A DNA stretch of 61,117 nucleotides, taken from positions 1 to 61,117 of the forward strand of contig DASXFL010000067.1 in assembly GCA_036489595.1 (NCBI GenBank), in the 5' to 3' direction. A program made the position numbers and the translations under genes. The stretch's first letter is position 1. The number at the start of each line of letters is the position of its first letter. This document shows, piece after piece, positions 1 to 38,104 of this stretch. The DNA is from Solirubrobacterales bacterium. GTDB taxonomy: Bacteria > Actinomycetota > Thermoleophilia > Solirubrobacterales > 70-9. The notes beneath the pieces are model-generated. The model saw only the letters and a list, made by a program, of their open reading frames with translations, was not told where the DNA came from and did no database searches.

Positions 1-1
1 C

Positions 2-898
2 ACGCTCTCCTTCAGCGTCAAGAACGCCAAGAACCAGCCGCTCTCCGGCGTCTCGATCTCCGGGACCGGCGCCGGCAGCTTCAGCGGCCGGACCGATTCG
101 ACCGGGTGCGCGAACTTCTCTGACCTGCCGGCCGGCAACTACAACGTGACCACGTCTGCCAACGGGATGGTCAACATGGCGGGCGAAACCTCGACGACCA
201 AGGTGTACGGAGTCCCGTCGGCCTCGACCCAGACCGTCGCGCTCTACTACGACTCCCCCGCGACGGTCGAACCGAAATTCGTCTACAGGGTCGGCAGCAG
301 CACCACCTTCGCCGAAGGACGAACCGATTCGCTCGAGGTCTTCAACGGCGAAGCCGGGAAGCTCGCGACGACCTACGGCACCGCGGGAGGCACCCGCGTA
401 TCGCCGTTCAAGGCGACGAACGTCTACCCGTTCACCTCGAAGACGACGGTCTACGCCGGGTCCTGCGAAACGAACAACCCCGATCCGGAAGGGAAGATCG
501 AAGCGAACCACGCGGCGATGGCCTTCGTCGAACTCTCGCCCGGGGGCTTGGCCCAGCCGACGATCCAGCTGCCGGCTCTCAACCTGACGGTCTTGAACGG
601 GACGACCCCGATCAACGGAGCGAAGGTCACGACCACCGACACGAAGTGCCCGAGCGCCACGAACGGGGTCAAGCGCGAATACACGACCGAAACCGGTGGG
701 CACCTCGCGATGCTCGTCAATGGCGTCGCTGTGCCTGACGCAGGCATGCCCTGGGGCGAATACAAGGTCTGCGCCTCGGCCAAGATCGGAACCAAGAACC
801 GCAAGCTGGAATCGACGGTGAGCGTCAAGAACCTCGTCGAAGGGACCACGCTCAACCTCAATCTCGCTAGCGGAATCGAAAACCAAACCTGTCCATGA
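2..898 (+). CDS. Exported pilus-locus protein; 5' end lies outside the window
   Basis: The frame is open from the window edge to TGA 896-898. The visible N-terminal part '...SGVSISGTGAGSFSGRTDSTGCANFSDLPAGNYNV' looks like a carboxypeptidase-regulatory-type beta-sandwich repeat. The protein is Thr/Gly/Asn-rich. Its stop overlaps the next start (ATGA at 895-898). 14 of 15 Glu codons are GAA. Confidence 0.55.
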   Translation, partial: TLSFSVKNAKNQPLSGVSISGTGAGSFSGRTDSTGCANFSDLPAGNYNVTTSANGMVNMAGETSTTKVYGVPSASTQTVALYYDSPATVEPKFVYRVGSSTTFAEGRTDSLEVFNGEAGKLATTYGTAGGTRVSPFKATNVYPFTSKTTVYAGSCETNNPDPEGKIEANHAAMAFVELSPGGLAQPTIQLPALNLTVLNGTTPINGAKVTTTDTKCPSATNGVKREYTTETGGHLAMLVNGVAVPDAGMPWGEYKVCASAKIGTKNRKLESTVSVKNLVEGTTLNLNLASGIENQTCP

Positions 899-1596
899 CA
901 GCGCGCCTGAAAGACGAGCGCGGGACGACCCTGGTCGAGCTGATGGTCGGCCTCGCCGCTGGCCTGGTCGTGCTGGCAGCGCTGAGCATGGTGCTGATCG
1001 TCGCCATGCGCGCCACTGCGCGAGTCGGCGCCAGGGTCGACGCCACGCAGCGGGCGCGCGTAGCCATGACCCAGATCATCGAAGAGATGCACTCGGCATG
1101 CGTCGAACCGAAGATGGCGCCCGTCCTCTCCTCGAGCAACAAGACCAAGCTCGTCTTCGTCCACGCGAGCAGCGGGACCGCCTCGGCCGTCGCGCCGACG
1201 CCTGTCAAGACCGAAATTCGCCTCAACGGGGAAACGCTCGAACAGAGGGACGTGCCGTGGGTCAGAGGCATCGCTCCGAACTGGGAATGGAACGAAGCCA
1301 GCCCGACCACCCGCCAGCTCCTCACCAAGGTCGGCCCGCCCACCTCCGGTGGCCCAATCTTCACCTACTACGTCTACTCGAACGGCGTGCTCGAAGCTTT
1401 CACGCCGTCGACCACCTCGTCGCTCGGAACCGAAACCGCAGAAAAGGTGGTTCAGGTTCAGGTGGCGTTGAACGCGCAGCCGACGAACCAGCCGGTCAAC
1501 GATCCAGGATCCGACGCGACCGTCCAGGACCGGGCCGTCTTCCGTCTCACCCCGCCCACCTTCAGCGAATCCGCCCCCGCCCTCCCATGCCAGTGA
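895..1596 (+). CDS. Minor pilin with prepilin-type N-terminal cleavage/methylation signal
   Basis: The N-terminus 'MTARLKDERG|TTLVELMVGLAAGLVVLAALSMVL' has Gly at -1, Glu at +5 and a hydrophobic helix. It is coupled to its neighbours by overlapping stop/start codons. Confidence 0.75.
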   Translation: MTARLKDERGTTLVELMVGLAAGLVVLAALSMVLIVAMRATARVGARVDATQRARVAMTQIIEEMHSACVEPKMAPVLSSSNKTKLVFVHASSGTASAVAPTPVKTEIRLNGETLEQRDVPWVRGIAPNWEWNEASPTTRQLLTKVGPPTSGGPIFTYYVYSNGVLEAFTPSTTSSLGTETAEKVVQVQVALNAQPTNQPVNDPGSDATVQDRAVFRLTPPTFSESAPALPCQ

Positions 1597-3269
1597 GCAG
1601 GCGCGAAAACGAGGACGGATTCACGATGATCGTCACGGTGATCGCAATGTCGGTGCTGGCGCTGCTGGTGCTGGTCGCAGTGACCGCGGTAAACGGCGAC
1701 GCCCAGCTGACGAGTCGCGACCTGATGCGGAAACAGGCGTACGAGGCCGCAAAGGCCGGAATCGACGAATACGCCTTCCGTCTGCATGCATACACCGGCT
1801 ACTGGTCGAAGTGCACGCAGGTCGAAGGGACGACCGCGGTCAACCAGGAAGGCTCGACGACCAACCGGCGCTCGGTGCCGGGGATGCCCAACGCCAAGTA
1901 CGCGATCGAACTGATCCCTGCCAACGGGCACATCTGCGACCCGACGAACCTGTCGACGGCAACGGCGACGATGCTGCAGTCGGCCGATCCGAACAAGGGC
2001 ACCTTCCGGATCCGCTCCAACGGCTACGCCGGCGAAAGCCACGTCGCGATCATGGCCACCTTCAAGCCGGCCAGCTTCCTCGACTACGTCTACTTCACCC
2101 AGTACGAGACCTCGGACCCGGTCAGCTACGCGACCGAAGAACTCAAATACGGCGCCGAACATCAGTGTGAAAAATTCATCCGCGAAGGACGGACCGAAAC
2201 TGCACTGAAGAACAAGGCCGGGCAGGTGATGAACACCAAGGGTGAACAGTATCGAGGCAATCGCGGCGAAGAACAGGTGTATTGCACGACGATCTCCTTC
2301 GTCAGCGGCGACAACATCAAGGGACCGATGCATACCAACGACGCCTTCGTCATCTGCAACACCTCCGGCGCCCCCATCCTGGGTCGGAAAATCGAAGATC
2401 CAATCGAGGTCGGCGCGGGCAGCCCGGGCTGGTACCCGACCAAGGAAACCTTCCTCCATTCGGGTTCGACGTGCGGCGGCAAACCGGAAATCAAGGGTCA
2501 GCTGCGGTTGAACTCGGCGGTGATCGTTCCTCCGGAAACCAACAGCGAACTCTCGACGATCGCCGAACCCGAATATCGCTTTTCGGGCGAAGTCTCGATC
2601 TGCCTCAACGGCTCGACGATGACCGTTGGCAAAGGCAAATCGTGCACCGAAAAGACCCTTCCCCTGCCGAGCAACGGCGTCATCTACGTCAGCAGCATCT
2701 CCTGCCTCGGGCTCTATACGCCGTTCAACCTCAGCTATTCGAGCACGCCCTCCGAATGCGGGAACGTCAATCTCAAGGGCACCTACTCGAAGCCGCTGAC
2801 GATCGCCGCCGCCAACGACGTGGTCATCACCGGCAATCTCACCAAGACCAACGAAGAAGGCATGCTCGGGCTGATCGCCAACAACTTCATTCGCGTCTAC
2901 CACCCGGTGAAGCTGCATCCGGAAGTATGCGAATACGTGAATGGGGTCAAGACCTGCCACGAAAACCTGGCGATTACCAATTGCGAAGGGAACGCGACCG
3001 GATCGATCTCGAACCTGACGATCGAAGCGGCGCTGCTGGCGATCAAACACTCGTTCATCGTCGACAACTACGACTGCGGCGCGCAGCTGGGCAACCTCAC
3101 CGTCAAGGGGGCGATCGCCCAGAAGTTCCGCGGCGCCGTCGGCACCACCAACAGCACCGGCTACCTCAAGAACTACGAATACGACGAACGGCTCAAGACC
3201 ACCGAGCCGCCGAGCTTCATCCAGCCGGTCAAGTCGGACTGGGTCATCGGCCGCGAGACGACCGAATGA
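1587..3269 (+). CDS. PilX-like large minor pilin / pilus tip-associated protein
   Basis: An ATG at 1587 is in frame with the long ORF and overlaps the previous stop. The N-terminus 'MPVSRRENEDG|FTMIVTVIAMSVLALLVLVAV' resembles the PilX N-terminal domain (no Glu5). The Cys-containing exported C-terminal region is about 500 aa. Confidence 0.6.
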   Translation: MPVSRRENEDGFTMIVTVIAMSVLALLVLVAVTAVNGDAQLTSRDLMRKQAYEAAKAGIDEYAFRLHAYTGYWSKCTQVEGTTAVNQEGSTTNRRSVPGMPNAKYAIELIPANGHICDPTNLSTATATMLQSADPNKGTFRIRSNGYAGESHVAIMATFKPASFLDYVYFTQYETSDPVSYATEELKYGAEHQCEKFIREGRTETALKNKAGQVMNTKGEQYRGNRGEEQVYCTTISFVSGDNIKGPMHTNDAFVICNTSGAPILGRKIEDPIEVGAGSPGWYPTKETFLHSGSTCGGKPEIKGQLRLNSAVIVPPETNSELSTIAEPEYRFSGEVSICLNGSTMTVGKGKSCTEKTLPLPSNGVIYVSSISCLGLYTPFNLSYSSTPSECGNVNLKGTYSKPLTIAAANDVVITGNLTKTNEEGMLGLIANNFIRVYHPVKLHPEVCEYVNGVKTCHENLAITNCEGNATGSISNLTIEAALLAIKHSFIVDNYDCGAQLGNLTVKGAIAQKFRGAVGTTNSTGYLKNYEYDERLKTTEPPSFIQPVKSDWVIGRETTE

Positions 3270-3372
3270 GACGGATGTTCTCCGAGTTCTAGGTAGGTCC
3301 GGACGAAGGGTCCGGGCCGGTTTGGTCGATGCAGAGGGTGTCGGGAAATGCGCCCGGCGAACCTTCCACGCC

Positions 3373-4464
3373 ATGGCCTCGATCTTCACCAAGCCGATCT
3401 CTGCGAAGACCCTGAAGGGAGAGGGCCCCGTAATCGGGCTCGAGATCGAGGCGGGGAGCGTCGGCGCGGTGGAAGCGAGCGGCGACGCGGTCAACGCAGC
3501 CGTGCAGCCGCTGCCGGCAGAGGCCTTTCGAGACGGCGAGGTGGTTGACCCCGACTCCGTGGCCGAGGCGTTGCGAGCGCTCTTCTCCGAGCACAAGCTG
3601 AGCAAGCGGGTCCGGCTCGGCATCGGCAACCAGCGCGTCGTCGCCCGGACGCTGCGGCTGCCGGCGATCGAGAACCCCGGCGAGCTCGATTCCGCCGTCC
3701 GCTTCGCGGCGCAGGAACAGGTCGCGATGCCACTCGACCAGGCCGTGGTCGAGCACCGCGTGGTCGGCGGCGTCGCGGGCGTCGAGGGCGCGCCGCCACA
3801 GATCGACGTGATGGTCATCGCTGCTCGACGCGAGATGATCTCGGCCACGCTGAAGCCCCTCCGCGACGCCGGCCTCGAACCGGTCGGCGTCGATCTTTCC
3901 GCCTTCGGGATGATCCGGGCCCTGGCCGGCGCCAGCGGGACCGGCGTGAACCCGGGCTCTGAGCCGGCCGACGGTGCCACCCTCTACTGCAGCGCCGGCG
4001 ACGTCACCACCCTCGCAATCGCCAAGGGCCGCTCCTGCCTCTTCACCCGCGTCTCGCCGGTCGGCCTCGACCAGACGGTCGACCGCCTCGTCTCGAGCAC
4101 CGAGATGAGCCACGAGCACGCGCGCATGTGGCTGACCCATGTCGGGCTCGAGTCCCCGCTGGAAACGATCGAGGGGGATGCCGCGACGGCCGCGCAGTCC
4201 CGGTCGGCTCTGGAGACCGGCGCCTCCTCGCTGCTCGACGAGCTGCGGATGTCGCTCGACTTCTACGGCGCCCAGGAGGGTGCGGTGCCAGCGCAGAGCG
4301 TGGTCCTGTGCGGACACGGGAGCGCGATCCCCGGCTTGGCGCAGCAGCTCGAACAGGGTCTCGCGCTCCCGGTCGAGGTCGGCCGCCCGCAGGCGCTCGC
4401 CGAGCTCGACGCCTCCCAGGTCGCCCGCCTGACGCTGCCCCTCGGGCTGGCGATGGAGAGCTGA
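3373..4464 (+). CDS. pilM: Type IV pilus assembly protein PilM (actin-like ATPase fold)
   Basis: 'MASIFTKPIS...VIGLEIEAGSVGAVEA' matches the usual PilM N-terminus. It is followed by pilN with a 1-nt overlap. The start is uncertain (TTG at 3322 is also possible). Confidence 0.85.
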   Translation: MASIFTKPISAKTLKGEGPVIGLEIEAGSVGAVEASGDAVNAAVQPLPAEAFRDGEVVDPDSVAEALRALFSEHKLSKRVRLGIGNQRVVARTLRLPAIENPGELDSAVRFAAQEQVAMPLDQAVVEHRVVGGVAGVEGAPPQIDVMVIAARREMISATLKPLRDAGLEPVGVDLSAFGMIRALAGASGTGVNPGSEPADGATLYCSAGDVTTLAIAKGRSCLFTRVSPVGLDQTVDRLVSSTEMSHEHARMWLTHVGLESPLETIEGDAATAAQSRSALETGASSLLDELRMSLDFYGAQEGAVPAQSVVLCGHGSAIPGLAQQLEQGLALPVEVGRPQALAELDASQVARLTLPLGLAMES

Positions 4465-5237
4465 TGCGGCCGATCAACCTGATCCCCGAGGAGGACCGGC
4501 CCGACGGGCGGCGGCCGCTGCGCACCGGCCCGCTCCCCTACGTCGTGGTCGGGATCCTGGCGCTGGCCGTGATCGGCCTGACGCTGATGGTCGTCACCAA
4601 CGGCCAGATCTTGGATCGCAAGTCCGAAGTCGCGCAGCTCGAAGCCGAGCAGCGGTCCGCCAAGGCGGAAGCCGAATCGCTGGCCCCCTACACCCAGTTC
4701 AACACCGTCCGTGAACAGCGTGTGACGACGATGACGAGCCTCGCCGACAGCCGCTTCGACTGGCCGCGGGTGATGCGCGAACTGTCGCTGGTTCTCCCGG
4801 CCGACGTCCATCTCAGCAGCCTCAGCGCCAGCGCCAGCCCGGAATCCGGTGAAGGAGAAGGGACCGGAATGCGGGCCGCGATCGCCGGCCCGGCGCTTGA
4901 AGTGGTCGGCTGCGCCTCGAGCCAGTCCTCGGTCGCCGGGTTCGTCGGTGCGCTCAAGGAGATCGACGGCGTCACCAGGGTCGGCGTCCAGTCGTCGGCG
5001 ATCGGTGGGTCCACCGAATCGGGCTCTGCGGTGGCCTCGACCTGCGCCGCGGGCAAATCGGTCGCTCAGTTCCAGATGATCGTCGCCTTCGACGCCGCGC
5101 CGACACAGATCGAAGGCGAATCCGAAGAAGAAGCGGCGGCGCCAGCTCCGGCGCCGGAAGCGTCGACCGAAACCACCTCTGGCGAATCGACGGAATCGAG
5201 CGAATCCTCCAGCAGCGGCGAAGGAGGGGCGGAGTGA
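4464..5237 (+). CDS. pilN: PilN-like bitopic pilus assembly protein with acidic Ser/Glu-rich C-terminal tail
   Basis: 'MRPINLIPEE' (the conserved PilN INLLP-like motif) is followed by a single TM helix and then a coiled-coil. It sits between pilM and pilO. Confidence 0.8.
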   Translation: MRPINLIPEEDRPDGRRPLRTGPLPYVVVGILALAVIGLTLMVVTNGQILDRKSEVAQLEAEQRSAKAEAESLAPYTQFNTVREQRVTTMTSLADSRFDWPRVMRELSLVLPADVHLSSLSASASPESGEGEGTGMRAAIAGPALEVVGCASSQSSVAGFVGALKEIDGVTRVGVQSSAIGGSTESGSAVASTCAAGKSVAQFQMIVAFDAAPTQIEGESEEEAAAPAPAPEASTETTSGESTESSESSSSGEGGAE

Positions 5238-6112
5238 TGCGCTCCTCGGGTCGCCTGGTCGTTTCGATCCTCGTCGTCGTGGCCCTCGCGATCGCCTTTT
5301 GGATGCTCGCGATCTCACCGAAGCGCGAAGAGGCCGACCGGCTCGGAACGGAAGTCGAACAGCTCACGTCGAGCGTCGAAGCCGCGCGCCGCGAAGTCAC
5401 CGCCGCGACCGCGGCGAAGCGGTCCTTCCCCGCCGACTACCGGCAGCTGGTGGTCCTCGGGCAGGCGGCCCCGGCCGGAGACGAAACCGCCTCCCTCCTT
5501 GTCGAACTGGAAAAGATCGCGAGCTCCTCCGGAGTCGAGTTCGAGAGCATCCAGCTGAGCAGCTCGGGCGGCGAAGCCCCCGTGGCCGAAGCTCCGGCGG
5601 CGTCCCCTGCGCCGCAGGAATCCGCCACCGGCTCGAGCGGCGCCGTGCAGGCCGCCGCGACCGTTCCGCCGACCGAGCTGGCGGCGTCGCTGCTGCCGCT
5701 GGGCGCCTCGATCGGGCCCGCCGGCCTCTACGTGATGCCGTACACCCTCGAATTCTCCGGCGGCTTCTTCCAGATCACCAGGTTCATCAGCAAGGTCGAC
5801 GACCTCGTCAAGACCGGCAGCGAAGGGATCGCCGTCGACGGTCGCCTGATCACCATCGGCGACTTCTCGCTCGACTCCGAAGCCGAAGGGGCCGAAGCCG
5901 AAGGGGTCGAAGCCGGTGGGTCCGAGCTGGCGGCGACCCTCTCGGTCACGACCTTCCTCAGCCCGCCCGGTCAGGGCGTCACCGCCGGCGCCACCCCCTC
6001 CGCTCCGGCGCCGGCGACGACGGAATCGGCGACCACGGTCTCGGCTCCGGGAACGTCCAGCGGAACGGCTGAAAGCTCGACCGCCTCCACGGAAACGGCG
6101 TCGGCGAAATGA
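5234..6112 (+). CDS. pilO: PilO-like bitopic pilus assembly protein
   Basis: N-terminal TM helix, coiled-coil 'EADRLGTEVEQLTSSVEAARREV', and a ferredoxin-like C-terminal part 'YTLEFSGGFFQITRFISKVD'. An alternative ATG lies at 5237, after the AAGGAGG at 5221-5227. Confidence 0.75.
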   Translation: MMRSSGRLVVSILVVVALAIAFWMLAISPKREEADRLGTEVEQLTSSVEAARREVTAATAAKRSFPADYRQLVVLGQAAPAGDETASLLVELEKIASSSGVEFESIQLSSSGGEAPVAEAPAASPAPQESATGSSGAVQAAATVPPTELAASLLPLGASIGPAGLYVMPYTLEFSGGFFQITRFISKVDDLVKTGSEGIAVDGRLITIGDFSLDSEAEGAEAEGVEAGGSELAATLSVTTFLSPPGQGVTAGATPSAPAPATTESATTVSAPGTSSGTAESSTASTETASAK

Positions 6113-7068
6113 ACTTCCTCAAGAAAGGGCCCGAGCTGAAGCTCCCGGGGCTCAAGGTCCCGGATTTCCTCTCCGACCTCTACTACGACCTGAAGGAACG
6201 GCACCTGCTACCGCTCGTCGCGGTGCTGGCGATCTCGGTCGTCGTCGTGCCGATCGCGCTCAGCCAGGCGACCGGGTCGGCCCCGGCTCCCGAAGAAGCC
6301 CCGATCGCGACGCCGAGCGCCGCCGCAAACGAAGCGAGCGCCCTCACGGTCGCCAAATCGGCACCGGGCCTGCGCGAGTACAGCCGCCGGCTCGAGGGCG
6401 CCCGGGCGATCGATCCGTTCCGCGAAGCCTCGGAAGCGGCGGCCTCCTCGGAAGCCTCGAGCGGTGCCGCCTCACCCGCGGGCGAAGCGCCCCCGGTCGC
6501 GGTCACCGAATCGAGCGGGTCGGCGGTGGCGGCGCCGATCGAATCCTCGCCCTCGGTCGGCTTCCCCAGCGAATCCGAAGGGAGCGGGACCTCGACGGTC
6601 ACCAAGACCAGGTACGCCTCGGAGACGGTCGACGTTCGCGTCGTCACGGTGCCGAAGGGCGGCGAAGACGCCCGCGTCAGCGCCAAGCCGTCGACCGAGG
6701 TTCGCCACGAGCTTCCGGAACTGACGATGCTGCCGAGCCGCAGCACTCCGGTCGCGATCTTCATGGGCACCAGCTCCGACGGCAAGAAGGCGCTACTGCT
6801 CGTCTCCTCCGACGTGCAGTCGATCTTCGGCGACGGCCAGTGCATCGTCGGTTCCCAGACCTGCCAGCTGCTGGCGCTCGAACAGGGCGTCCCCGAGACC
6901 TTCGTCTACGGCCCGCAGGCGCGGACCTTCAGGATCGAGATCCTGAAACTGACGAAGACGCTCAGCAGCCGGCCGCGGAAGGCGTCGCTCGGCAAGTCCA
7001 AGGACGAGGGCGCCCACCACGAAGCGCCCGAAAGCGCCGGCCGCATCAGCGCCGCTCAGCCGAGGTAG
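6109..7068 (+). CDS. Uncharacterised bitopic membrane protein in the PilP/PilQ position
   Basis: ATGA overlap with pilO. It has one TM helix (LLPLVAVLAISVVVVPIAL), a low-complexity Ala/Ser/Glu linker, and a C-terminal beta-rich domain 'AIFMGTSSDGKKALLLVSSDVQSIFGDGQCIVGSQTCQLLALEQG'. Confidence 0.6.
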   Translation: MNFLKKGPELKLPGLKVPDFLSDLYYDLKERHLLPLVAVLAISVVVVPIALSQATGSAPAPEEAPIATPSAAANEASALTVAKSAPGLREYSRRLEGARAIDPFREASEAAASSEASSGAASPAGEAPPVAVTESSGSAVAAPIESSPSVGFPSESEGSGTSTVTKTRYASETVDVRVVTVPKGGEDARVSAKPSTEVRHELPELTMLPSRSTPVAIFMGTSSDGKKALLLVSSDVQSIFGDGQCIVGSQTCQLLALEQGVPETFVYGPQARTFRIEILKLTKTLSSRPRKASLGKSKDEGAHHEAPESAGRISAAQPR

Positions 7069-7802
7069 AGGTCGATCAGCTGGTCGCCGGCCAGCAGGCC
7101 GACGATGCCGCCGAGCGCCAGGAAGGGGCCGAACGGGATCGCGGTCTTGCGGGCCGCGGCACCGTGGCGGAGGATGATCCAGAGCCCGACCGCGCTGCCG
7201 GCGAGCAGTGCCGCGAGGATCGCCGGCGCCACGGCCCGGCCGAGGAACAGTCCCATCGTCGCGGCGAGCTTGACGTCGCCGAGGCCCATGCCTTGGGGAT
7301 AGGCGAGGGCGACCAGGAAGAAGAGGAGACCGGCGCCGGCGCCGGCAATCGCCCGCTCGGGCAGTCCCGCCGGATCGGTCGGCGCAGCAATCGCGACGCA
7401 GAGGATCGCGCCCGCGATCAAGGCCTTGTTCGGAATCGTCCGGCGCTCGAGATCGGTGAGGGTGACGACCGCCAGCATCGCGATGAAGGCGAGCCCGATC
7501 ACCGCTTCCGCGGGGTGGTGCCGATAGACGAGGACGGTGGCGGCGAAGAGGGCGCCGACGGCGAGCTCCGTGAGGGGGTAGCGGATCGAGATCCGCGCAC
7601 CGCAGCAACGTGCGCGGCCGCGCAGCAACACCCAGGAGACCACGGGCACGTTGTCGTAGGCAGCGATCCGGGCCCCGCAGGCGGGACATTCGGATCGCCC
7701 CATGACGATCGAGATGCCGCGCGGCAGCCGGTGGGCGACGGCCGTCGCGAAGCTGCCGACCGCGAGGCCGAGGACGAAGGCGAGCAGGACGACGGCGATC
7801 AT
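7056..7802 (-). CDS. pilD: Prepilin peptidase (A24 family) with N-terminal Cys-rich DiS-P-DiS domain
   Basis: 'CPACG...RCCGARISIRYPLTEL', plus the two catalytic Asp contexts 'TLTDLERRTIP' and 'GMGLGDVKL'. Confidence 0.9.
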   Translation of the reverse strand: MIAVVLLAFVLGLAVGSFATAVAHRLPRGISIVMGRSECPACGARIAAYDNVPVVSWVLLRGRARCCGARISIRYPLTELAVGALFAATVLVYRHHPAEAVIGLAFIAMLAVVTLTDLERRTIPNKALIAGAILCVAIAAPTDPAGLPERAIAGAGAGLLFFLVALAYPQGMGLGDVKLAATMGLFLGRAVAPAILAALLAGSAVGLWIILRHGAAARKTAIPFGPFLALGGIVGLLAGDQLIDLYLG

Positions 7803-7851
7803 CGGAGGCGAGTTCTATCCGGGGAGGCGGCGGCGGCCGTCGGCCACCAGC

Positions 7852-9063
7852 CTAGGAAGCCGGTACGACCTTGAAGATCCGTTTCGCCCCGGTCTTCTCG
7901 ACGTTGCCGGCGAGGTCGGTGGCGCGGATCCGGACCACGTAGCGCTTGGGGCGAAGGTGGCCGAGCCGGAAGGGCGATGCGCACGGCTTCCATCCCGCCT
8001 TGTTCACTTTGCAGGCAAAGCTCGTTCCGGGCGGGTCTTCGGTCACGTCGGCGAAGCGGAACACCACCTTGCGCTTGCGAGTCTTGACCCCCGGGCCCAT
8101 GGTCACCCGAGTCACCGGCGCGGTCGAGTCCTCGTCGTAGGTGACCGGGCTCGAGCACGCGGACCGCTGCCCGCCGACGGAGACGGCCGAGTAGGTCGTG
8201 GTGGTGTTGTCGGCGACCTGCACCGCGAAGCCGGACGAGAGCTCCGCCGCGGAGCCCTTGGCCACCGGCGTGCCGCTGCAATCGCCGTCGGGGTAGAGGA
8301 TCACCGAGCCGGCCCCTGGAGCGCTGCCAGCGATCGCCGGGGAGTTGTCGTTGGCAACCGCTTTCGGGTTCATGTGGAGCTTCGGGGGTTCGGGCTTGCC
8401 GGTGGTCACACCCGGGCCAACGGATTCGGCCGGGGGGACTGCGCCTCCCGCAGGCTGCTGAGTGGAGCCACCGCTCGAGCTGCCCGTTCCGGCGCTACCT
8501 CCGGCTTCTCCGCCCAGGCCTTCTTCCCCACTTTCGCTCGGCACGTTCCCCTCCCAGTAGGAAAGAGCACCCGAACAAGCGGAGAATACCGTCGGACTAT
8601 TGGGGTCCACCTGATTGGCCGAGATGACCGTCAATGCGTTCGTCGGCACCGTTACCTGGATGCCCGTCGCCTCGAAGGTATCGGCGCGGCCGCGGCCGAT
8701 CGGCGCGCCGGCGCATTCGGGCTGAGCGTAGATCAAGATTTCGTATTCTGGGTGCTGCGTCGGGTTCTTAACGGCAGCCGTGCTCGCGCCCCAGCCGTTG
8801 AGCAGCGGACCAGTGCCCTGGATGACGACTCCGTCTTCAGGTTCGGCTTCGCCGAGCACCAGCGGAGTGGTCGTGCTCGCCGGCGAGACATGCGAGGAAG
8901 CTGGGCTCGTTTCGAGGATCTTCGGCGAGATCGGCGCCGCCGCGTGCGCTCCTGCGCTAGCAACCAGAAGCATCAAAACCGTAATTACAATGCACAGCGA
9001 CAGGCGGGCCACGATGGCCCGCCTGTCGTCAACTTGCTGGGGCATGTGAGTGCCCATCGTCAC
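7852..9063 (-). CDS. Secreted Ig-like repeat protein, probably co-transcribed with pilA
   Basis: Signal peptide 'IVITVLMLLVASAGAHA|AAP'. There are two related Cys-pair modules ('ILIYAQPECAG...FSACSG' and 'VILYPDGDCSG...RSACSS'). The C-terminal module is 'VVFRFAD...FACKVNKAGWKPCASPF...VRIRATDLAGN'. The gene starts 10 nt after the pilA stop. Confidence 0.7.
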   Translation of the reverse strand: MTMGTHMPQQVDDRRAIVARLSLCIVITVLMLLVASAGAHAAAPISPKILETSPASSHVSPASTTTPLVLGEAEPEDGVVIQGTGPLLNGWGASTAAVKNPTQHPEYEILIYAQPECAGAPIGRGRADTFEATGIQVTVPTNALTVISANQVDPNSPTVFSACSGALSYWEGNVPSESGEEGLGGEAGGSAGTGSSSGGSTQQPAGGAVPPAESVGPGVTTGKPEPPKLHMNPKAVANDNSPAIAGSAPGAGSVILYPDGDCSGTPVAKGSAAELSSGFAVQVADNTTTTYSAVSVGGQRSACSSPVTYDEDSTAPVTRVTMGPGVKTRKRKVVFRFADVTEDPPGTSFACKVNKAGWKPCASPFRLGHLRPKRYVVRIRATDLAGNVEKTGAKRIFKVVPAS

Positions 9064-9075
9064 CTGGTCGGCTAC

Positions 9076-9552
9076 TCAGCCATTTTCCCAGTTACCGATA
9101 CCACCGCCGCTACCTGGGCAACCGCCCGTCCCGGCCTTTTCGCATTCGAATTTCTCACCGCCGGTAGATTCTCTTTTTACCCAGAAATTCTGCCCAGCCT
9201 TAGCTCCCTGGATAGTAATTTTGTAGCTGCTGGCCGTAACTTCGGGTTCGCCGACGAACGTGGCGCTGCTTAGCGTAGGCTCGATCTTGATCAATTCTGC
9301 TTTGGTAGCACCGGCGTAGCTTCCGCCATTTTCGGTCGAGTAGGTCTCCATCGCGGTCTGAGCGGAATGGACGTACTCCTTGGCCTTGGCGTCGCCAGCC
9401 TTTTCCTTCTGGTTGAAGAAGGCCGGCAGAGCGATCGCGGCGAGGATGCCGAGGATCAGCATGACGACGAGAAGCTCGATCAGGGTGAAACCGGCCTCTT
9501 TGTCACCGTTGAGCCGGGCACCAACCTTAGCCCGGAGATTCTGGAGCAACAT
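9076..9552 (-). CDS. pilA: Major type IV pilin
   Basis: GGAGG lies 6 nt upstream of the ATG at 9552. 'MLLQNLRAKVGARLNGDKEAG|FTLIELLVVMLILGILAAIALPAF' gives a 21-aa leader, Phe at +1 and Glu at +5. A C-terminal Cys pair is present ('FECEKAGTGGC'). GC content is locally lower. Confidence 0.85.
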   Translation of the reverse strand: MLLQNLRAKVGARLNGDKEAGFTLIELLVVMLILGILAAIALPAFFNQKEKAGDAKAKEYVHSAQTAMETYSTENGGSYAGATKAELIKIEPTLSSATFVGEPEVTASSYKITIQGAKAGQNFWVKRESTGGEKFECEKAGTGGCPGSGGGIGNWENG

Positions 9553-9812
9553 AGGTACCTCCATGGTCCTATCGTTTGCGCCAGAGCCCGGGTAGTCGCC
9601 TGGTGGCGCCGGAGCACTGGCAGTTACTTGCCCTCTCCTCATCGGCGCTTCGAACCGTCGCTTTAGGCTCTGGAGAGCCGTTTGCGCGGGTTCTCCTAGT
9701 TTTGCTGACTGTGTCCTAAAAGTTGGGTAACCGTTAGAACAAAAGTGTCGATCTAGACTGGTTTGGACCGCAAAAGTAGAGGCTGAGACCCGAACGAACG
9801 TCTAGCCGCGGC

Positions 9813-11051
9813 TCAGCGGATGTGTTCGTAGATCGAAAACATCGGCAGGTACATCGAGACCACGATGAAGCCGACGATGCCGCCGACGAAGACGATCATG
9901 ATCGGCTCGAGCAGTGCGGTCAGCGCTTTTACCTTCGCGTCCACCTCGGCCTCGTAGAAGTCGGCGACTTTGCCGAGCATGGTGTGGAGCTGACCCGTTT
10001 CCTCGCCGACGGACACCATGTGACCTACCATCGGCGGGAAAATGGAGTTCTGCTCGATCGGACTGGCGAGGGTCCCGCCGCGTTTCACCGATGCGTAGAC
10101 GTCCTCCATCGAGCGCTCGACGACGGTGTTGCCGGCGGTCTCACCGGTCAGTTTGATCGCCTGCAGCATCGGCACCCCAGCCTCGACCGAGCCGGCGAAG
10201 GTCCGCGACCAACGGGCCAGCGACACCTTCTGTATCACGTCGCCGATCTTGAACGGGATCTTCAGCTTGAAGCGGTCCCAGAGGTCCTGTCCCGCTTCCG
10301 TCTTCTTCCACTTGAAGAAGGCGAAGATGATCAGCGCGATTGCCGGAATGAGGACGAACCAGTAGCCGGTGAGGACTTCCGAGGCGGCGACGCAGAGCTT
10401 CGTCGGCGCCGGCAGTTCGGCCTTTTCTTCGGGGTGTTCTTCGGCCAGTTCTTTGAAGATCTTGGCGAAGACAGGGATCACGAAGGCGACGATCGCGACC
10501 AGGACCACCGTCGCGAAGCCGAAGACCAGCGCCGGGTACATCAGCGCCGATTTCACCTGGCGGCGCAGCGCGTCCTGTTTCTCCACCTGGTAGGCGACCC
10601 TGTCGAGCACCTCGTCGAGCCGTCCGGACTGCTCTCCTGAGCGAACCATCGCCCGGTAGAGGCGGTCGAAGACGCGGGGGTAGCGCTCCATCGCCTTCTC
10701 CAGCGAGCTTCCCGCCTCGACGTCGGAGCGGAGGCCGGCGACGGCCTCTTTGATCTCTTCGTCCTGGGTCTGCTCTTCGAGCGTCTGCAGGGTGCGCAGC
10801 ATCGGCATCCCGGAGGCGACCAGGGTGGCGAACTGGCGGGAGAAAACGGAGAGCTCTCGTTTGTCGACGCCCTTCCAGCGCTTGAACAGGTCCTCGATCT
10901 TGAAGGGGTTCGATTTCTCGCTGACGTCGAGGACGATCAGGCCGCGCTGGCGCAGCTGCTCGCCGACGGCGGCCTTCGATTCGGCCTCGATCTCGCCCGC
11001 CGAGGTGGCCCCGGCGAGGTCCATGGCCCGGAAGTTGAAGGTGGCGGCCAT
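9813..11051 (-). CDS. pilC: Type IV pilus platform protein PilC (GspF family)
   Basis: Two GspF-type repeats ('SVFSRQFATLVASGMPMLRTLQ', 'ARWSRTFAGSVEAGVPMLQAIK') and three TM segments. Confidence 0.9.
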   Translation of the reverse strand: MAATFNFRAMDLAGATSAGEIEAESKAAVGEQLRQRGLIVLDVSEKSNPFKIEDLFKRWKGVDKRELSVFSRQFATLVASGMPMLRTLQTLEEQTQDEEIKEAVAGLRSDVEAGSSLEKAMERYPRVFDRLYRAMVRSGEQSGRLDEVLDRVAYQVEKQDALRRQVKSALMYPALVFGFATVVLVAIVAFVIPVFAKIFKELAEEHPEEKAELPAPTKLCVAASEVLTGYWFVLIPAIALIIFAFFKWKKTEAGQDLWDRFKLKIPFKIGDVIQKVSLARWSRTFAGSVEAGVPMLQAIKLTGETAGNTVVERSMEDVYASVKRGGTLASPIEQNSIFPPMVGHMVSVGEETGQLHTMLGKVADFYEAEVDAKVKALTALLEPIMIVFVGGIVGFIVVSMYLPMFSIYEHIR

Positions 11052-11054
11052 CGC

Positions 11055-12189
<1,135 letters not shown>

Positions 12190-12203
<14 letters not shown>

Positions 12204-13998
12204 GGAGCACCTCCTCGAGGCTGGTCTGGCCGGAGCGGACCTTGGCGACGCCGTCCTCGCGCAGGGTCAGCATTCCCTCTTCGCGGGCGACCGCGGCGAT
12301 GTCGGTCTCGGCCGCCCGGGCGATCGTCATTTCCTTCAGCTGGTCGCTCAGCTCCATCGCCGAGAAGATCCCGACCCGGCCTTTGTAGCCGGTCTGGTTG
12401 CAGCGCCCGCAGCCGAGCGGCTCGTAGGCCTCGACCTCGGCCCCGACCCGGACCCCGGCCTCCATCAGCGCCAGTGTCGGGATCACGGTGCGCCGCTTGC
12501 AGTGGAGACATAGCCGGCGCGCCAGGCGCTGGGCGACGACGCAGTCGACCGCCGAGGCGGTCAGAAACGGCTCGATGCCCATCTCCCCCAGTCGGGCGAT
12601 CGCCCCCGGGGCGTCGTTGGTGTGAAGGGTGGTCAGCATCATGTGTCCGGTCAGCGCCGCCTCGACGGCGATCCGCGCCGTCTCCGAGTCGCGGATCTCC
12701 CCGACCATCACGATGTCGGGGTCGGCACGGAGGATCGAGCGCAGCCCGCGGGCGAAGTCGAGGCCGGCTTTGCGGTTGACATTCATCTGGTTGATGCCGT
12801 CGATCCGGTACTCGACCGGGTCCTCGATCGTGATGATCTTCTTCGTCACCTCGTTCAGCTCGGCGAGCGCCGCATAGAGCGTCGTGCTCTTGCCGGAGCC
12901 GGTCGGGCCGGTCACCAGGATCGCCCCGTAGGCCTGCCGGAAGGAGCTCTCGAACCGCCCCCGGGCCGAGCCGTCCATCCCCAGTTCGTCGAGGGTCCGG
13001 TGGGCGTTCGATTCGTCGAGGATGCGGATCGTCGCCCCCTCGCCGCGCTGCGTCGGCAGCGTCGTCACGCGGAGGTCGATCCGCCGTTCCTCGACCGAGA
13101 CGCTGACCCGCCCGTCCTGGGGAATCCGCTTCTCGGCGATGTCGAGCTCGCTCATGATCTTCAGCCGCGAGATCACGGCGCCGATCATCCGCCGCGGCAC
13201 GTGCGCCGCTTCTTTCAGCACCCCGTCGACCCGGAAGCGGACCCGCAGCTCGCCCTCTTCGGGCTCGAGGTGGATGTCGGAGCTGCCCTCCCCCACCGCC
13301 TGGGCGAGGATGCTGTAGACGAGCTTGATCACCGGCGCGTCCTCGGCGCCCGCCTGCATCTCGGTGACCGCGCCGAGCTCGTCCTCCGCCGCCTCCGACT
13401 CGTCTTCGATGATCGCCTCGGCGGCCGCGTTCTGGACCGTGCCGAGCCTGGTCAGCAGCGCGTCGACGTCGCTCGGCCCCGCCACCGCGATCCGACAGTC
13501 GAGCCCGGTCGCGATCTGGATGTCGTCGACGGCGAGCACGTTGGCCGGATCGGCGGCGGCGACCAAGAGCGTCCGTTGGTCGAGGAAGCCGACCGGGACG
13601 GCGCGGTAGCGCCGCGCCATCGAGGCCGGGAACAGCGCCGCGGCGGCGAGGTCGACGTTGTAGACGCCGAGGTCGAGGTGGTCGAGCCCGTAGCGCTCGG
13701 CGGTCGCCCGCGAGAGCTGGTCTTCGGTGATCGCGGCCTGCTCGAGCAGCAGCGCCTCCGGCGGGCGGCCGGCGCTTCGCGCCGCCTCGGTCGCGGCGGC
13801 GACCACCTCCGGCGTCGCGTATCGCAGCTCGACCAGGACGTCGGTGATGAAGCCTCGCGACCGGCCGCGCTCCAGCATCGGCGCGGTCAGTCCGGGCGTG
13901 CCGCCGTGCTCGGCCTCGATCACCGGAGCGGCCGAGCCCCCGGAGTCGGGAACCGGCCGCAGGTGGCCCGGGTACTGGGTGCCGTCGTTGGCGCTCAT
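12190..13998 (-). CDS. pilB: Pilus extension ATPase PilB (GspE family) with N-terminal GspE_N/MshEN-like domain
   Basis: 'VTGPTGSGKSTTLYAAL', 'MVGEIRD', the tetracysteine motif 'CLHCK...CGRCNQTGY', and the N-terminal region 'LRYATPEVVAAATEAARSAG...LLLEQAAITEDQL'. Confidence 0.9.
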
Positions 13999-14008: not shown

Positions 14009-14641
14009 CTATTCCGGGTGGTAGGTCGCTTCGGGGCCCTTGTAGGAGGCGTCGCGCACCGCCTGCACCAGCGTCTGCGGCGTCTGGAACCCGTAGTCGA
14101 CGCTCGCCTGCGGGGTGCCGCCGCTGAGCCGCTTCGGCTTCATCACCACCAGCGCCGGAACGCGGTTGAGGTCGAGGCCGACGGTGACCGCCGCGTAGCG
14201 CGGCAGCTGCTTGACCGTGACCGGGATCAGCGCCACTTCCGGCATCACCGTGAGCACGGTCGCCGCCGCCGCGGTCAGGCGGTCGTCGATGCCGCCGTCG
14301 TGGACGACCAGCAGGACCACGGTCTTGCCCGATTCGTAGGCGGCGGTGAAGGCGTGCGGCGGGGGCGGCGCCGGCACCGAGGTCGGCATTTCGGCGCCGG
14401 CGGTGGCGCCTGCCAGGGCGCCACCTTCGATCGCCGATTCGACCGCGCCTTCGACCACTTCGCCGGCTTTCGAGGCGACTTCGCTCTGGCTCATTTCGGT
14501 GCCGCCGATCGCGACGGTTGCTTCCGAGCTTCCCGATTCGCCGCCGCCACCGGGTTTCAAGAACATGAAGGCCGCCACCGCGACCAAGACGAGCACCACC
14601 GCGACCTGGGCGATCGGGTTGTCGTTCAGCTGCTCCCTCAC
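14009..14641 (-). CDS. Uncharacterised membrane-anchored ectoprotein between pilB and the second PilT-like gene
   Basis: It overlaps the upstream stop and ends 10 nt before pilB. It has an N-terminal TM helix and a Gly/Glu/Ala linker. The C-terminal alpha/beta domain 'KTVVLLVVHDGGIDD...VKQLPRYAAVTVGLDLNRVPALVVM' is thioredoxin-fold-like but has no CxxC. All ectodomain Glu codons I read are GAA. Confidence 0.65.
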   Translation of the reverse strand: MREQLNDNPIAQVAVVLVLVAVAAFMFLKPGGGGESGSSEATVAIGGTEMSQSEVASKAGEVVEGAVESAIEGGALAGATAGAEMPTSVPAPPPPHAFTAAYESGKTVVLLVVHDGGIDDRLTAAAATVLTVMPEVALIPVTVKQLPRYAAVTVGLDLNRVPALVVMKPKRLSGGTPQASVDYGFQTPQTLVQAVRDASYKGPEATYHPE

Positions 14642-15771
14642 CGCGCCACCGCCTCGGCCCCGTTGCCGCTCGGCTCCATCTGCTCGATCCCGCTCGCCCG
14701 CTGGCCGCCGGCGGCGAGCATCAGCTTCAGGTCGTGGGCGCTTGAGGCGTACTCCATCGCCACCTCCTCGCTGATCCGCCCCGCCATCGCGTAGCCAAGC
14801 AGCGACTGGTCGAAGGTCCGCATCCCGTAGTACTCGCCTTCGGCGATGACCTCGGTGATCTTCCCCGTTTCCTCGGGGTTGAGGATCAGGTCCTGGATCC
14901 GGCCGGTGACGACCATCACCTCGGAGGCGGGCATCCGCCCCTCGCCGGTCAGGTCGGGGACGAGCCGCTGTGCGATCGCCCCCCTCAGGGTCGAGGCGAG
15001 CATCACCCGCGCCTGCTGCTGCAGGTGCGGCGGGAAGAAGTCGATGATCCGGTTGACGGTCTCGGTCGCGTCGAGGGTGTGAACGGTGGAGAGCACCAGG
15101 TGGCCCGTCTCGGCGGCCGAGAGCGCCGTCCGCACCGTCTCCTCGTCGCGCATCTCGCCGACCAGGATCACGTCGGGGTCCTGGCGCAGAACCCGCCGCA
15201 TCGCCCGGCCGAAGCTCTTCGTGTCGGCGCCGACTTCGCGCTGGTTGACGATCGAGAGCTTGTCCTGGTGCAGGTACTCGATCGGGTCCTCGAGGGTGAC
15301 GATGTGCCGCGAGCGGGTGCGGTTGATGTGGTCGATCATCGCCGCCAGCGTCGTGCTCTTGCCGGAGCCGGTGGTGCCGGTGACGAGGACGATCCCGCGC
15401 GGCTCCTCGGCCAGGCGCCGGACCACCTCGGGCAGCCCGAGCTCGTCGATCGAGCGGATTTCGTAGGGAATCGCGCGACAGACGATCGAGATCGAGCCGC
15501 GCTGCTTGAAGCAGTTGACGCGGAAGCGCGAGACGCCCGGCAGTGCGTAGGAGAAGTCGGCCTCGCCGTCCTCCTCGAACTCGGTCAGAGAGCGCTCCTC
15601 GGCCATCTCCGTGAAGGCGCGCTCGGTGTCCTCGGGGCCGAGCTGGCCGAACCCCTCGAGCGGGATCAGCTCACCGTGCATGCGAGCGATTGGCGGCGAG
15701 TCGACCTTGACGTGCAGGTCCGACCCCTCCCTCTCGACGAGGGTCTTCAGGGCTAGATCGATCTCGAACAT
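14638..15771 (-). CDS. Second PilT/PilU-family hexameric ATPase
   Basis: 'MFEIDLALKTLVEREGSDLHV', Walker A 'GTTGSGKSTT', 'LVGEMRD'. It lacks the AIRNLIRE signature ('GRIQDLILNPEETGKI'). Confidence 0.85.
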   Translation of the reverse strand: MFEIDLALKTLVEREGSDLHVKVDSPPIARMHGELIPLEGFGQLGPEDTERAFTEMAEERSLTEFEEDGEADFSYALPGVSRFRVNCFKQRGSISIVCRAIPYEIRSIDELGLPEVVRRLAEEPRGIVLVTGTTGSGKSTTLAAMIDHINRTRSRHIVTLEDPIEYLHQDKLSIVNQREVGADTKSFGRAMRRVLRQDPDVILVGEMRDEETVRTALSAAETGHLVLSTVHTLDATETVNRIIDFFPPHLQQQARVMLASTLRGAIAQRLVPDLTGEGRMPASEVMVVTGRIQDLILNPEETGKITEVIAEGEYYGMRTFDQSLLGYAMAGRISEEVAMEYASSAHDLKLMLAAGGQRASGIEQMEPSGNGAEAVAR

Positions 15772-23834: not shown

Positions 23835-23856
23835 CGAGGGTGGAAGATAGACGGCG

Positions 23857-25065: not shown

Positions 25066-26006
25066 TCCTCAGCCTCGTCGGTGAACCAGCCGACCAGCTC
25101 CAGCCCCGCCTCGGCGTAGACCGCCTCCAGCCGCGGCCGCGAGAACTTGGTCGAGATCTCGGTCCGCATCTCCTCGCCGACCGCGAAGTGGGTGACGAGG
25201 TCGATCCCCTCGAGCCGCACGTCCTGGTCGCAGAGCGAGCGCAGGCGGATATCCATCCGCTCCTCGCGCTCGTCGAAGCGGGCGACGTGCTCGAAGCAGT
25301 CGAGGTCGAAGTCGGCGTCGAGCTCGCGGTTGAGGACGTTGAGGACGTTCTTGTTGAACTCGGCAGTGACCCCGCCCGGGTCGTCGTAGGCGAGCTCGAG
25401 CCGGGCCCGGTCCTTGATCAGGTCGGTGCCGAGCAGGAGGTGGTCGCCTGGGTCGAGCAGGGCCCGGATGCGAGCGAGGAAGTCGCGGCGCGGCCCCGGA
25501 TAGAGGTTGCCGATCGTGCCGCCGAGGAAGGCGATCAGCCGCGGCGCCACCGCCTGCGGGATCCGCTCCAGGTGGCGCTCGAAGTCGCAGACGACCCCGT
25601 GGACGGCGAGCCCCGGGTACTCCTCGACCAGCGCCTCGGCGGTTTCCTGGGTGATCTCCTCGGAGATGTCGACCGGGGCGTAGACCTCGAGGCTGCCGGC
25701 TTCGCGCATCGCGTCCAGCAGGACCCGGGTCTTCGCCGCCGAGCCCGAGCCGAGCTCGATCAGCGTCCGCGGCGAGCCGGCGGCGGCGGCGATCTCGGCG
25801 GCACGGCCGGTCAGGATCGCGCGCTCGGCCCGGGTCGGGTAGTACTCCTCGAGCTCGGTGATCCGCTCGAACAGCCGCGAGCCGCGCTCGTCGTAGAACC
25901 ACTTCGGCGCCAGCTCCTTCGGCCAGGCCGAGAGCCCGGCGCGGACGTCGCGCGCCATCGTCGCCGTCGTGTCGGCATCGAGATGGACGTCGATCGCGAT
26001 CGTCAT
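25032..26006 (-). CDS. egtD: L-histidine N-alpha-methyltransferase (ergothioneine pathway)
   Basis: '[28 protein letters not shown]', '[10 protein letters not shown]', 'FLGGTIGN', 'EISTKFS'. The ATG overlaps the egtB stop (ATGA at 26003-26006). Confidence 0.9.
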
Positions 26007-38002: not shown

Positions 38003-38067
38003 CTCGTCACACCACGGCCCAGCCGGAAGCGCAAGAACAGGCGCAGGCGCGGCTGGAAGGGGTCGGC

Positions 38068-38093: not shown

Positions 38094-38104
38094 GTCCCCG
38101 GCGT

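Follow-up and report, generated by a model that had tools for sequence, protein, structure and literature searches.

Glutamate codon choice follows the location of the residue in a clade of Solirubrobacterales

The stretch of DNA considered here is contig DASXFL010000067.1 of a Solirubrobacterales bacterium (GenBank assembly GCA_036489595.1), whose positions 1 to 61,117 are hereafter called the window. It carries a pilus locus and an OpuC locus, and its genes use the two glutamate (Glu) codons, GAA and GAG, in an unusual manner. Pfam confirms the identities of PilM, PilN, PilO, a prepilin peptidase, PilC, two PilT and PilB, and moreover those of an OpuAC binding protein with its ATP-binding cassette (ABC) ATPase and permease, a P-type ATPase and a zf-HC2 anti-sigma factor. 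A first-pass annotation of the window had claimed from hand counts that Glu codons flip between GAG in cytoplasmic and GAA in exported protein segments, both within operons and within single genes. Our recounts and the flips seen at the level of single loops bear out this dichotomy linked to topology, and the effect spans the full 61-kb window, of which the pilM-pilN pair (3373-5237) is one instance.

Glutamate codons in the genes of the window

Genes were called with a codon-model caller, their starts being approximate, and counts are given below as GAA / GAG. On the forward strand the window opens with a fragment of an exported protein having a CarboxypepD_reg-like domain (2-898; 14 / 1), followed by the minor pilin (895-1596), where Glu8 and the pilin Glu of the N-terminal helix (937-939) are GAG and the ectodomain has 11 / 1, and by an exported protein of 547 residues with an N-terminal hydrophobic segment (1626-3269; 34 / 5). 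Then come the cytoplasmic PilM (3373-4464; 5 / 23) and PilN (4464-5237), whose cytoplasmic tail has GAG GAG (4488-4493) and whose part after the transmembrane (TM) helix has 22 / 3. They are followed by PilO (5237-6112; ectodomain 21 / 5) and a bitopic protein of unknown family (6109-7068), which has 16 / 8 after its TM helix and one conserved column fixed on GAG (0/11 GAA).

The next genes lie on the reverse strand. An exported protein of 403 residues with no Pfam match (7852-9063; 14 / 5) is neighboured by the major pilin with its N_methyl motif (9076-9642), in which Glu5 (9475-9477) is GAG and the part after the helix has 9 / 4. In PilC (9813-11051; T2SSF domains) the first and second cytoplasmic domains have 3 / 15 and 2 / 10, while the extracytoplasmic loop of residues 193-219 (10395-10475) has 6 / 0 and the Glu of the C-terminal tail (9825-9827) is GAA. 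The cytoplasmic ATPases PilT (11055-12203; 1 / 20), PilB (12190-13998; 9 / 44) and a second PilT-like protein (14638-15771; 4 / 36) are strongly on the GAG side, and in the conserved bitopic protein of unknown family at 14009-14641 Glu3 of the cytoplasmic tail is GAG and the other 13 Glu are all GAA.

Further along the forward strand, the P-type cation ATPase (33035-35500) has 6 / 49 overall, its large cytoplasmic domains being nearly all GAG, and all three Glu of its short extracytoplasmic loop (residues 755-769; 35297-35341) are GAA. The anti-sigma factor (38598-39305) has 3 / 11 in its cytoplasmic part and 4 / 5 in its ectodomain, which makes it a weak case, and the lipoprotein with Lipoprotein_15 repeats (39302-39907) has 12 / 2. 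At the OpuC locus, the OpuCA-like ABC ATPase with a CBS domain (51162-52367; cytoplasmic) has 3 / 27, an ABC permease (53127-53858) has 7 / 4 with GAA in its N-terminal and outer segments and GAG in its inner loops, and the OpuAC-family substrate-binding lipoprotein, OpuCC (53914-54945), has 37 / 5.

Accordingly the earlier hand counts for PilM, PilN (two GAG before its helix), OpuCA, OpuCC and the fragment at 2-898 were all reproduced. The switch at the membrane boundary, reported before for the minor pilin, PilO and the gene at 14009-14641, was found again (the last has 13 / 1 overall and 13 / 0 in its ectodomain), and the gene at 6109-7068 proved intermediate on recounting as had been said. 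The same holds for the two genes described as mixed, namely the anti-sigma factor and a predicted bitopic Arg-rich protein of unknown family at 28020-28937 on the reverse strand, which has 9 / 15 overall and 9 / 13 after its hydrophobic segment; these two ectodomains may depart from the rule either because their topology is unlike that predicted or because the domains are largely buried.

When the window is pooled, 32 proteins without a hydrophobic segment have 81 GAA and 727 GAG (10% GAA), while nine ectodomains have 180 GAA and 30 GAG (86% GAA; Fisher p = 1.3e-101), and the GAA fraction per gene differs as well between the nine and the 32 genes (Mann-Whitney p = 1e-5). Here and below, the exported and cytoplasmic labels come from a crude hydropathy heuristic that is blind to codons. 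Multipass membrane proteins of the window are intermediate, with about 0.33-0.64 GAA. The specificity for Glu that had been proposed holds, since the two classes agree in every other codon family: AAA stands at 18% vs 20%, CAA at 5% vs 3% and GAT at 8% vs 13%, pairs of C- and G-ending codons are used alike, and the GC content of third codon positions (GC3) outside Glu is 0.89-0.97 in both. The split survives the controls for neighbouring base, other codons and GC3 that had been named beforehand. In fact it persists whichever base precedes or follows the codon and whichever amino acid comes next, with GAA fractions, sorted by following base, of 0.06-0.13 in cytoplasmic and 0.75-0.91 in exported segments.

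Several simple causes can be set aside at this stage. Sequence context, be it the neighbouring base, the next amino acid or a Shine-Dalgarno-like GAGG, is rejected as the split is present in every context, and regional GC or horizontal transfer is rejected as GC3 outside Glu is equal between the classes. Destabilisation of the ribosome by acidic runs fails because cytoplasmic Glu beside another Glu has the same GAA fraction as other Glu, and low-complexity acidic linkers or repeat slippage fail because the folded OpuCC domain and the conserved PilC loop behave alike. Codon optimisation linked to expression is not what is found either, since only Glu is involved, and co-transcribed neighbours (pilM and pilN, opuCA and opuCC) and even parts of single genes differ. 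As a related observation on composition, ectodomain genes have an A-rich coding strand, owing to GAA together with Lys, Asn, Thr and Ser codons, and the maxima of positive AT skew (0.17-0.28, at 1-4000, 6001-8000, 38001-40000 and 54001-56000) appear to match exported genes of the forward strand.

Lineages, membrane topology and single columns

A PilB scan of species-representative genomes gave 34 Solirubrobacterales loci (Thermoleophilia, Actinomycetota; all from metagenome-assembled genomes, MAGs) and about 45 loci of other phyla, and a metagenome scan with OpuCC gave about 20 further loci with the dichotomy and two homologues without it (L099 and L101); the related loci are homologous regions, that is pilus and OpuC loci, rather than whole genomes. 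We call P+ a lineage with the codon dichotomy and P- one without it, a rough split of our own. Since the lineages are phylogenetically non-independent, other synonymous pairs in the same alignments are used as control. The trait occurs in about 50 related Solirubrobacterales loci, and most Solirubrobacterales loci are P+, with typical GAA fractions of 0.08-0.26 in cytoplasmic and 0.6-0.9 in exported proteins. The P- lineages are L016 (exported 0/32 GAA), L027 (1/39), L029-L031 and L033, and the dichotomy is absent from every high-GC outgroup examined. The check in related genomes that had been proposed thus finds the dichotomy in these approximately 50 loci but not in the sister lineages or in other high-GC phyla. 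OpuCC is also present on a soil-metagenome contig of the Joint Genome Institute (JGI), and its best 120 relatives listed, drawn from many samples, have an identity of 79% or more; the clade therefore appears abundant in soil metagenomes. Among the matches listed in this homology search there were no distant homologues and no new genomic regions.

Four pilus proteins were used for a rough neighbour-joining tree, in which L016 and L027 form the sister group of the main P+ clade, and the P- lineages L029-L033 that of a second P+ group (L035, L006 and L009). Since each of the two P+ groups is sister to P- lineages, the trait was gained or lost more than once, or else the tree is imperfect. In the sister lineages L016 and L027, GAA makes up 1.4% in ectodomains and 6% in cytoplasmic proteins, and AAA 3-4%, so that GAA is a codon nearly lost in related lineages, as expected of a codon-capture intermediate. 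Moreover lysine AAA makes up 11-52% of Lys codons in P+ vs 1-8% in P-, the same inside and outside the cell, and glutamine CAA is low in both; this rise of AAA alongside the trait, with CAA low, suggests a shared change in the tRNAs reading the A-ending Lys and Glu codons. P+ loci with raised AAA include L002-L015, L017-L026, L028, L035 and L082-L098. Two OpuCC orthologues, at L094:897-1862 (12 / 18) and L102:1953-2693 (13 / 12), are intermediate and about 80% identical to the window protein; they keep GAA at E81, E83, E87 and E109 and have GAG at many variable surface columns, and could be lineages in transition or reverting.

Along the polypeptide, the codons are in register with the membrane. 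At N-terminal signal anchors the GAA fraction is 0.16 in the cytoplasmic tail and 0.14 in the hydrophobic segment, and past the helix end it is 0.78 at residues +1 to +5, 0.93 at +6 to +10 and still about 0.8 more than 100 residues in. The change from GAG to GAA is therefore a step at the end of the membrane helix with zero lag. In PilC, the codons track the final location of each loop, and domain 2, translated after two membrane helices, is back to GAG. The same is seen in 69 multipass proteins of related lineages, in which inner and outer loops, assigned by the positive-inside rule alone, have GAA fractions of 0.22 and 0.63 (p = 6e-38); the sister lineages and other phyla show no such difference in this test. 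It had also been suggested that the GAA fraction would serve as a topology predictor, and this stands within the clade, where across P+ genes it separates exported from cytoplasmic proteins, as crudely labelled, with an area under the curve (AUC) of 0.965, but not in the sister and outgroup lineages (0.61). The P+ outliers that we inspected were nearly all our own misclassifications, such as truncated starts and TetR regulators.

One explanation put forward in the first-pass annotation, namely translation kinetics or tRNA usage tied to export, is not supported. Ribosome coupling predicts a lag of about 30-40 residues, whereas there is none at the helix end. Cytoplasmic domains after membrane helices (PilC domain 2, the P-type ATPase) are GAG, folded ectodomains hold Glu columns that are GAG-fixed in every lineage, and the effect persists more than 100 residues into ectodomains. 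For the absence of a lag and for the GAG of cytoplasmic domains past TM helices, translation at the membrane, mRNA targeting and pausing coupled to the translocon are rejected likewise.

At the level of single alignment columns, synonymous sites in P+ are close to saturation; for example in the deepest P+ pairs the same-codon identity of Ala is 0.67 vs 0.50 expected, and it hardly changes with divergence. Against this background GAA occupies the conserved Glu columns in the outer loop and the tail of PilC in 22/22, 23/23, 23/23 and 21/21 P+ lineages, and in the P- sister lineages the same columns are mainly GAG. Over 20 P+ lineages OpuCC has 26 conserved Glu columns, of which 20 are GAA-fixed, three GAG-fixed and three mixed, while in the same alignment synonyms are polymorphic in 24 of 27 Ala columns and 11 of 18 Lys columns. 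The GAG-fixed ones are E126 (54289-54291; 0/20 GAA), E209 (54538-54540; 0/20) and E316 (54859-54861; 0/18), and they are so in all lineages. PilO and PilN likewise have GAG-only columns beside GAA-only columns, for instance the Glu of the PilO motif PT-E-LAASLLPLG (5675-5677), which is GAG in 13/13 related lineages. Altogether, ectodomain Glu columns comprise 24 GAA-fixed and six GAG-fixed ones with 25% polymorphic, compared with 52-82% polymorphic for other synonymous pairs, and columns fixed on the minority codon in six ectodomain families are 6/40 for Glu vs 4/148 for Gly, Lys, Val and Thr (p = 0.007). Hence in ectodomains the two codons are not exchangeable, in the sense of purifying selection on GAA-GAG changes, and in cytoplasmic proteins this barrier is not seen.

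The GAG-fixed ectodomain sites look structural. E126 and E209 of OpuCC align with Glu62 and Glu145 of AfProX, the former adjacent to Tyr63 and the latter four residues from Arg149, which we take to be ligand-binding residues, so that two of the three GAG-fixed sites appear from the alignment to flank the ligand pocket. In 21/21 P+ pilins GAG encodes Glu5, a residue that is buried both in the membrane and in the core of the filament. Moreover Arg (2.7x), Met, Cys, Tyr and hydrophobics are over-represented beside the GAG sites of ectodomains, and GAA sites lie among Gly, Ser, Asn and Glu. Conservation alone does not set the codon, since the GAA-fixed columns of OpuCC include E81 (NFxEQ; 54154-54156) and E271 (ILEDDK; 54724-54726), which are conserved in both solved homologues compared and yet GAA in all lineages.

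These results show that the choice of the Glu codon is under site-by-site purifying selection in both directions, according to the location and the structural role of the residue. GAA is kept at solvent-facing acidic positions outside the cytoplasmic membrane, GAG is kept at some structured extracytoplasmic Glu positions, including the two beside the ligand pocket, and in cytoplasmic proteins selection favours GAG at conserved Glu positions. The pattern does not depend on operon membership, and as it is complete even in proteins of presumably low abundance, expression level does not appear to matter either. As the selection acts site by site, two ways and in the register of the residue, expression, mRNA targeting, export kinetics and mutational history are therefore excluded as its cause. 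Fast evolution or site age is rejected too, because equally fast cytoplasmic proteins use GAG (TetR regulators at 53-58% identity and PilM at 61%) and ancient Glu columns are GAA-fixed. What goes beyond the first-pass annotation is that the trait is confined to a clade, that GAA marks exposed as against critical sites as well, and that lysine AAA rises in the same lineages.

Possible meanings of the two codons

In ectodomains, the residues facing P+ GAA in P- homologues have no dominant partner (A 0.15, E 0.12, T 0.12, S 0.11, D 0.10, and also G), GAA behaving here as an added residue would, while GAG aligns with E at 0.48, to be compared with 0.52 for D with D. The Glu content of ectodomains is 7.9% in P+ vs 4.4% in P-, and in the examples that we read, linkers rich in Thr, Pro and Ala in P- seem to have given way in P+ to linkers rich in Glu(GAA), Ser and Gly. 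The OpuCC of P+ has 11-15 Asp residues, compared with 20-23 in P-, and GAA supplies 21-32. At conserved columns, GAA does not stand for a different standard amino acid, as it aligns mostly with E and then with D and Q. Asp is excluded as its meaning, GAA being absent from all conserved Asp columns. A meaning of Lys, Gln or another neutral residue is disfavoured as well, since OpuCC would become strongly basic and the translocated PilC loop net positive, and since the partners are E, D and Q. The net charge of the window OpuCC is -12 if GAA is acidic and +14 if it is neutral, that of the nearest P- homologue being -11, although this charge argument is weak as two P- homologues differ by 13 units; the extra Lys in the P+ PilC outer loop also favours an acidic GAA.

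We tentatively favour the reading that GAA and GAG are no longer functionally synonymous in this clade and give non-equivalent products, while granting it somewhat less than an even chance; the reason is that only the finished protein "knows" where a residue is located. The Glu codon box would then be split between distinct tRNAs. GAG would be read by a tRNA with anticodon CUC and give canonical glutamate, and at GAA a second tRNA, with anticodon UUC, would deliver an acidic, glutamate-like but non-identical residue, or a noisier mixture; this cargo might be a related acidic amino acid or a derivative of glutamate formed on the tRNA. Such a product would be advantageous at exposed extracellular positions, near-neutral or tolerated at variable cytoplasmic sites, and excluded where true Glu is needed. 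As a speculation, exposed true Glu outside the cell might be selected against by a secreted glutamyl endopeptidase. The sister lineages weakly suggest a route: GAA and AAA are nearly unused in them, and in this clade both are in use, GAA having acquired a distribution of its own and AAA having risen as a plain synonym of AAG; their near-absence from the sister lineages fits either codon capture or secondary loss. The distribution over the clade together with the raised AAA fits a heritable decoding change. The avoidance of GAA at cytoplasmic columns with ancestral Glu (6%, as against 33% where sister lineages lack Glu) also speaks for the non-equivalence of the codons. In the strongest form of the idea, GAA would stand for a twenty-first amino acid, acidic and non-canonical, or for a tRNA-made glutamate derivative, either of which would make up about 6-7% of extracytoplasmic residues and be exposed, with GAG encoding true glutamate; this we regard as rather unlikely.

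Several points weigh against the non-equivalence of the products. E81 and E271, which are Glu in both solved OpuAC homologues, are encoded by GAA, the substitution partners of GAA (E, D, Q, K) are typical of Glu, and charge continuity favours an acidic residue at GAA; by homology, a different residue would therefore need to be acidic and non-standard, and the prior for this is very low. The two codons replace each other in cytoplasmic proteins about as freely as the synonyms of Ala do. No tRNA-Glu, glutamyl-tRNA synthetase (GluRS) or other decoding gene was recovered from any locus, so that the decoding step is wholly conjectural, and crude tools underlie the labelling of proteins as exported or cytoplasmic as well as the P+/P- split and the tree. 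A search for alternative codes in more than 250,000 genomes (PMC8629427) also reports no change of a Glu codon, although its method would infer E for GAA here anyway. In the window and about 60 related loci scanned there was no genuine tRNA gene. Two ARAGORN calls, a tRNA-Lys(ctt) at L024:1297-1389 and a tRNA-Val(gac) at L088:17061-17150, are 90-93 nt long and were dismissed as false positives, not being tRNA-like on inspection. Among 138 exported proteins there were no HExxH enzymes and no twin-arginine translocation (Tat) signal peptides.

Alternatively, both codons may mean ordinary Glu and differ in error spectrum, speed or drop-off, with a fitness cost that depends on where the residue lies; for example GAG would be the accurate codon for critical or cytoplasmic sites where errors give toxic misfolding, and GAA would be favoured where errors are harmless or where fast decoding aids export. 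This is possible, if on balance doubtful. It leaves the genetic code unchanged, and modest scaled selection would presumably suffice in large bacterial populations. Moreover GAG is enriched at conserved Glu in both compartments, which is the classic signature of accuracy selection: where all, some or none of the non-P+ homologues have Glu, the GAA fraction of P+ is 6%, 16% and 33% in cytoplasmic proteins and 64%, 76% and 88% in ectodomains, and the effects of compartment and conservation seem to be roughly additive on the logit scale. However, the variable cytoplasmic sites reach 33% and not about 90%, so that a positive selection for GAA acting only outside would be needed in addition. Furthermore the bias should scale with expression, but it is complete in low-abundance proteins (23/23 in the PilC loop and 3/3 in the ATPase loop), and the conserved E81 and E271 are fixed on GAA rather than on the supposedly accurate codon. 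Lys AAA and AAG would be read by the same class of tRNA as Glu GAA and GAG, yet Glu alone is affected, AAA being 21%, 28% and 26% at the corresponding cytoplasmic columns with no gradient. The zero positional lag excludes a kinetic effect coupled to the ribosome.

GAA might also be a regulatory rare codon, by which a regulated tRNA-Glu(UUC) gates the synthesis of the exported proteome much as the TTA codon and bldA do. That GAA is scarce in cytoplasmic genes and clusters in a single functional class of proteins, that the sister lineages barely use it and that the precedent comes from a high-GC actinobacterium would all suit this idea, but for gating a handful of GAA codons at any place in the gene would do. 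The idea leaves unexplained why PilC and the ATPase have GAG in cytoplasmic domains and GAA in outer loops, as it does the three GAG-fixed columns of OpuCC and the gain of Glu and loss of Asp in ectodomains, and we consider it quite improbable. Hardly credible is a non-equilibrium mutational history, by which young Glu on fast-turnover surfaces would be GAA derived from Asp GAC by a C-to-A transversion and old Glu would be GAG: it suits the poor conservation of GAA positions relative to the sister lineages, the replacement of OpuCC Asp by GAA and the higher GAA at columns without Glu in those lineages, but Glu columns older than the radiation are 100% GAA while equally old Ala, Leu, Val and Lys synonyms are randomised, Glu that is GAG in sister lineages is now GAA in every P+ lineage (PilC loop; OpuCC E81, E87, E109 and E271), and equally fast cytoplasmic proteins remain GAG.

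The present case fails a defining feature of each of the closest known systems. With bldA and TTA in Streptomyces it shares a rare A-ending codon, a high-GC actinobacterium and a functional class of genes; there, however, presence in the gene is what matters, whereas here the effect is specific to loops and sites, covers nearly all exposed Glu and includes GAG-fixed sites too. Accuracy bias of the Akashi type likewise enriches one codon, here GAG, at conserved sites, but here a single amino acid is concerned, independently of expression, the sign is reversed between compartments, and some conserved columns are GAA-fixed. Uracil-rich mRNAs of membrane proteins and SECReTE repeats are composition biases linked to export. 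The same kind of correlation between message composition and export is found in the 5' rare-codon clusters of secreted genes (PMC2833160), and all these biases are weak, regional (in the signal peptide or the whole mRNA) and spread over many codons, whereas the present one is near-binary, confined to one pair and extended over the whole mature domain. Codon capture, as in the Osawa-Jukes model and the bacterial reassignments of CGA, CGG and AGG (Shulgina and Eddy 2021, PMC8629427), is alike in being heritable and clade-confined, in touching one codon of one box, and in that the closest lineages, under strong GC pressure, hardly use the codon, which then comes back with a usage of its own. It differs in that GAA here is by homology still glutamate-like and acidic and that no standard amino acid fits a new meaning. 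For known reassignments a partition by compartment or exposure is unreported, while here it is present, and no altered tRNA is seen here. Selenocysteine at UGA and pyrrolysine at UAG would be alike, if the reading of non-equivalent products holds, in having a codon with a distinct residue, a dedicated tRNA and a charging or modifying enzyme; they are stop codons at few sites, whereas here a sense codon would be concerned at about 6-7% of extracytoplasmic residues, with machinery that is only presumed.

In full-text literature searches we found no prior description of a synonymous split linked to topology or exposure. Two synonymous codons held apart site by site by the location of the residue, throughout a clade, have thus not been described before, and they run against the usual view that synonymous choice is blind to where a residue lies. 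For these uncultured organisms they moreover provide a near-perfect readout of topology and surface exposure from sequence only. If the products differ, this would be the first case of a split Glu codon box and of a natural change of the code linked to a cell compartment, which would bear on the evolution of the code under GC pressure, and the genes of these MAGs would be mistranslated in databases and in heterologous hosts. If GAA were to encode a non-canonical residue, the code would have expanded naturally at a sense codon, with a partition by compartment. If the products are identical, a strong location-dependent selection on decoding is required, which is equally unexpected.

Other features of the window

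The bitopic protein at 14009-14641 sits between pilB and the second pilT and has no Pfam match. Its orthologues are found in 20 P+ loci and in the P- loci L016, L027, L031 and L033 (e.g. L016:9368-9973 and L035:9327-9980), and the linker of this family is Thr/Ala/Pro-rich without Glu in P- and Glu(GAA)/Ser/Gly-rich in P+.

At the OpuC locus, the first ABC permease (52364-53130) was called as two overlapping open reading frames, 52364-52846 and 52804-53130, the N-terminal part being GAA-rich (6 / 2). The identical metagenome contig L001 has a single permease gene of 255 residues there, which indicates a frameshift in the window or an artefact of the caller. On the reverse strand at 22896-27109, a histidine methyltransferase (Methyltransf_33) adjoins a protein with DinB_2 and FGE-sulfatase domains, and a CN_hydrolase protein lies about 0.8 kb off; the three resemble the ergothioneine genes EgtD, EgtB and EgtC. 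The binding protein named here OpuCC also matches solved structures of the ergothioneine transporter EgtUC (E about 1e-21). With these Egt-like genes and EgtUC matches, the transporter at 51162-54945 on the forward strand may therefore import ergothioneine or a related betaine rather than a classic osmoprotectant.

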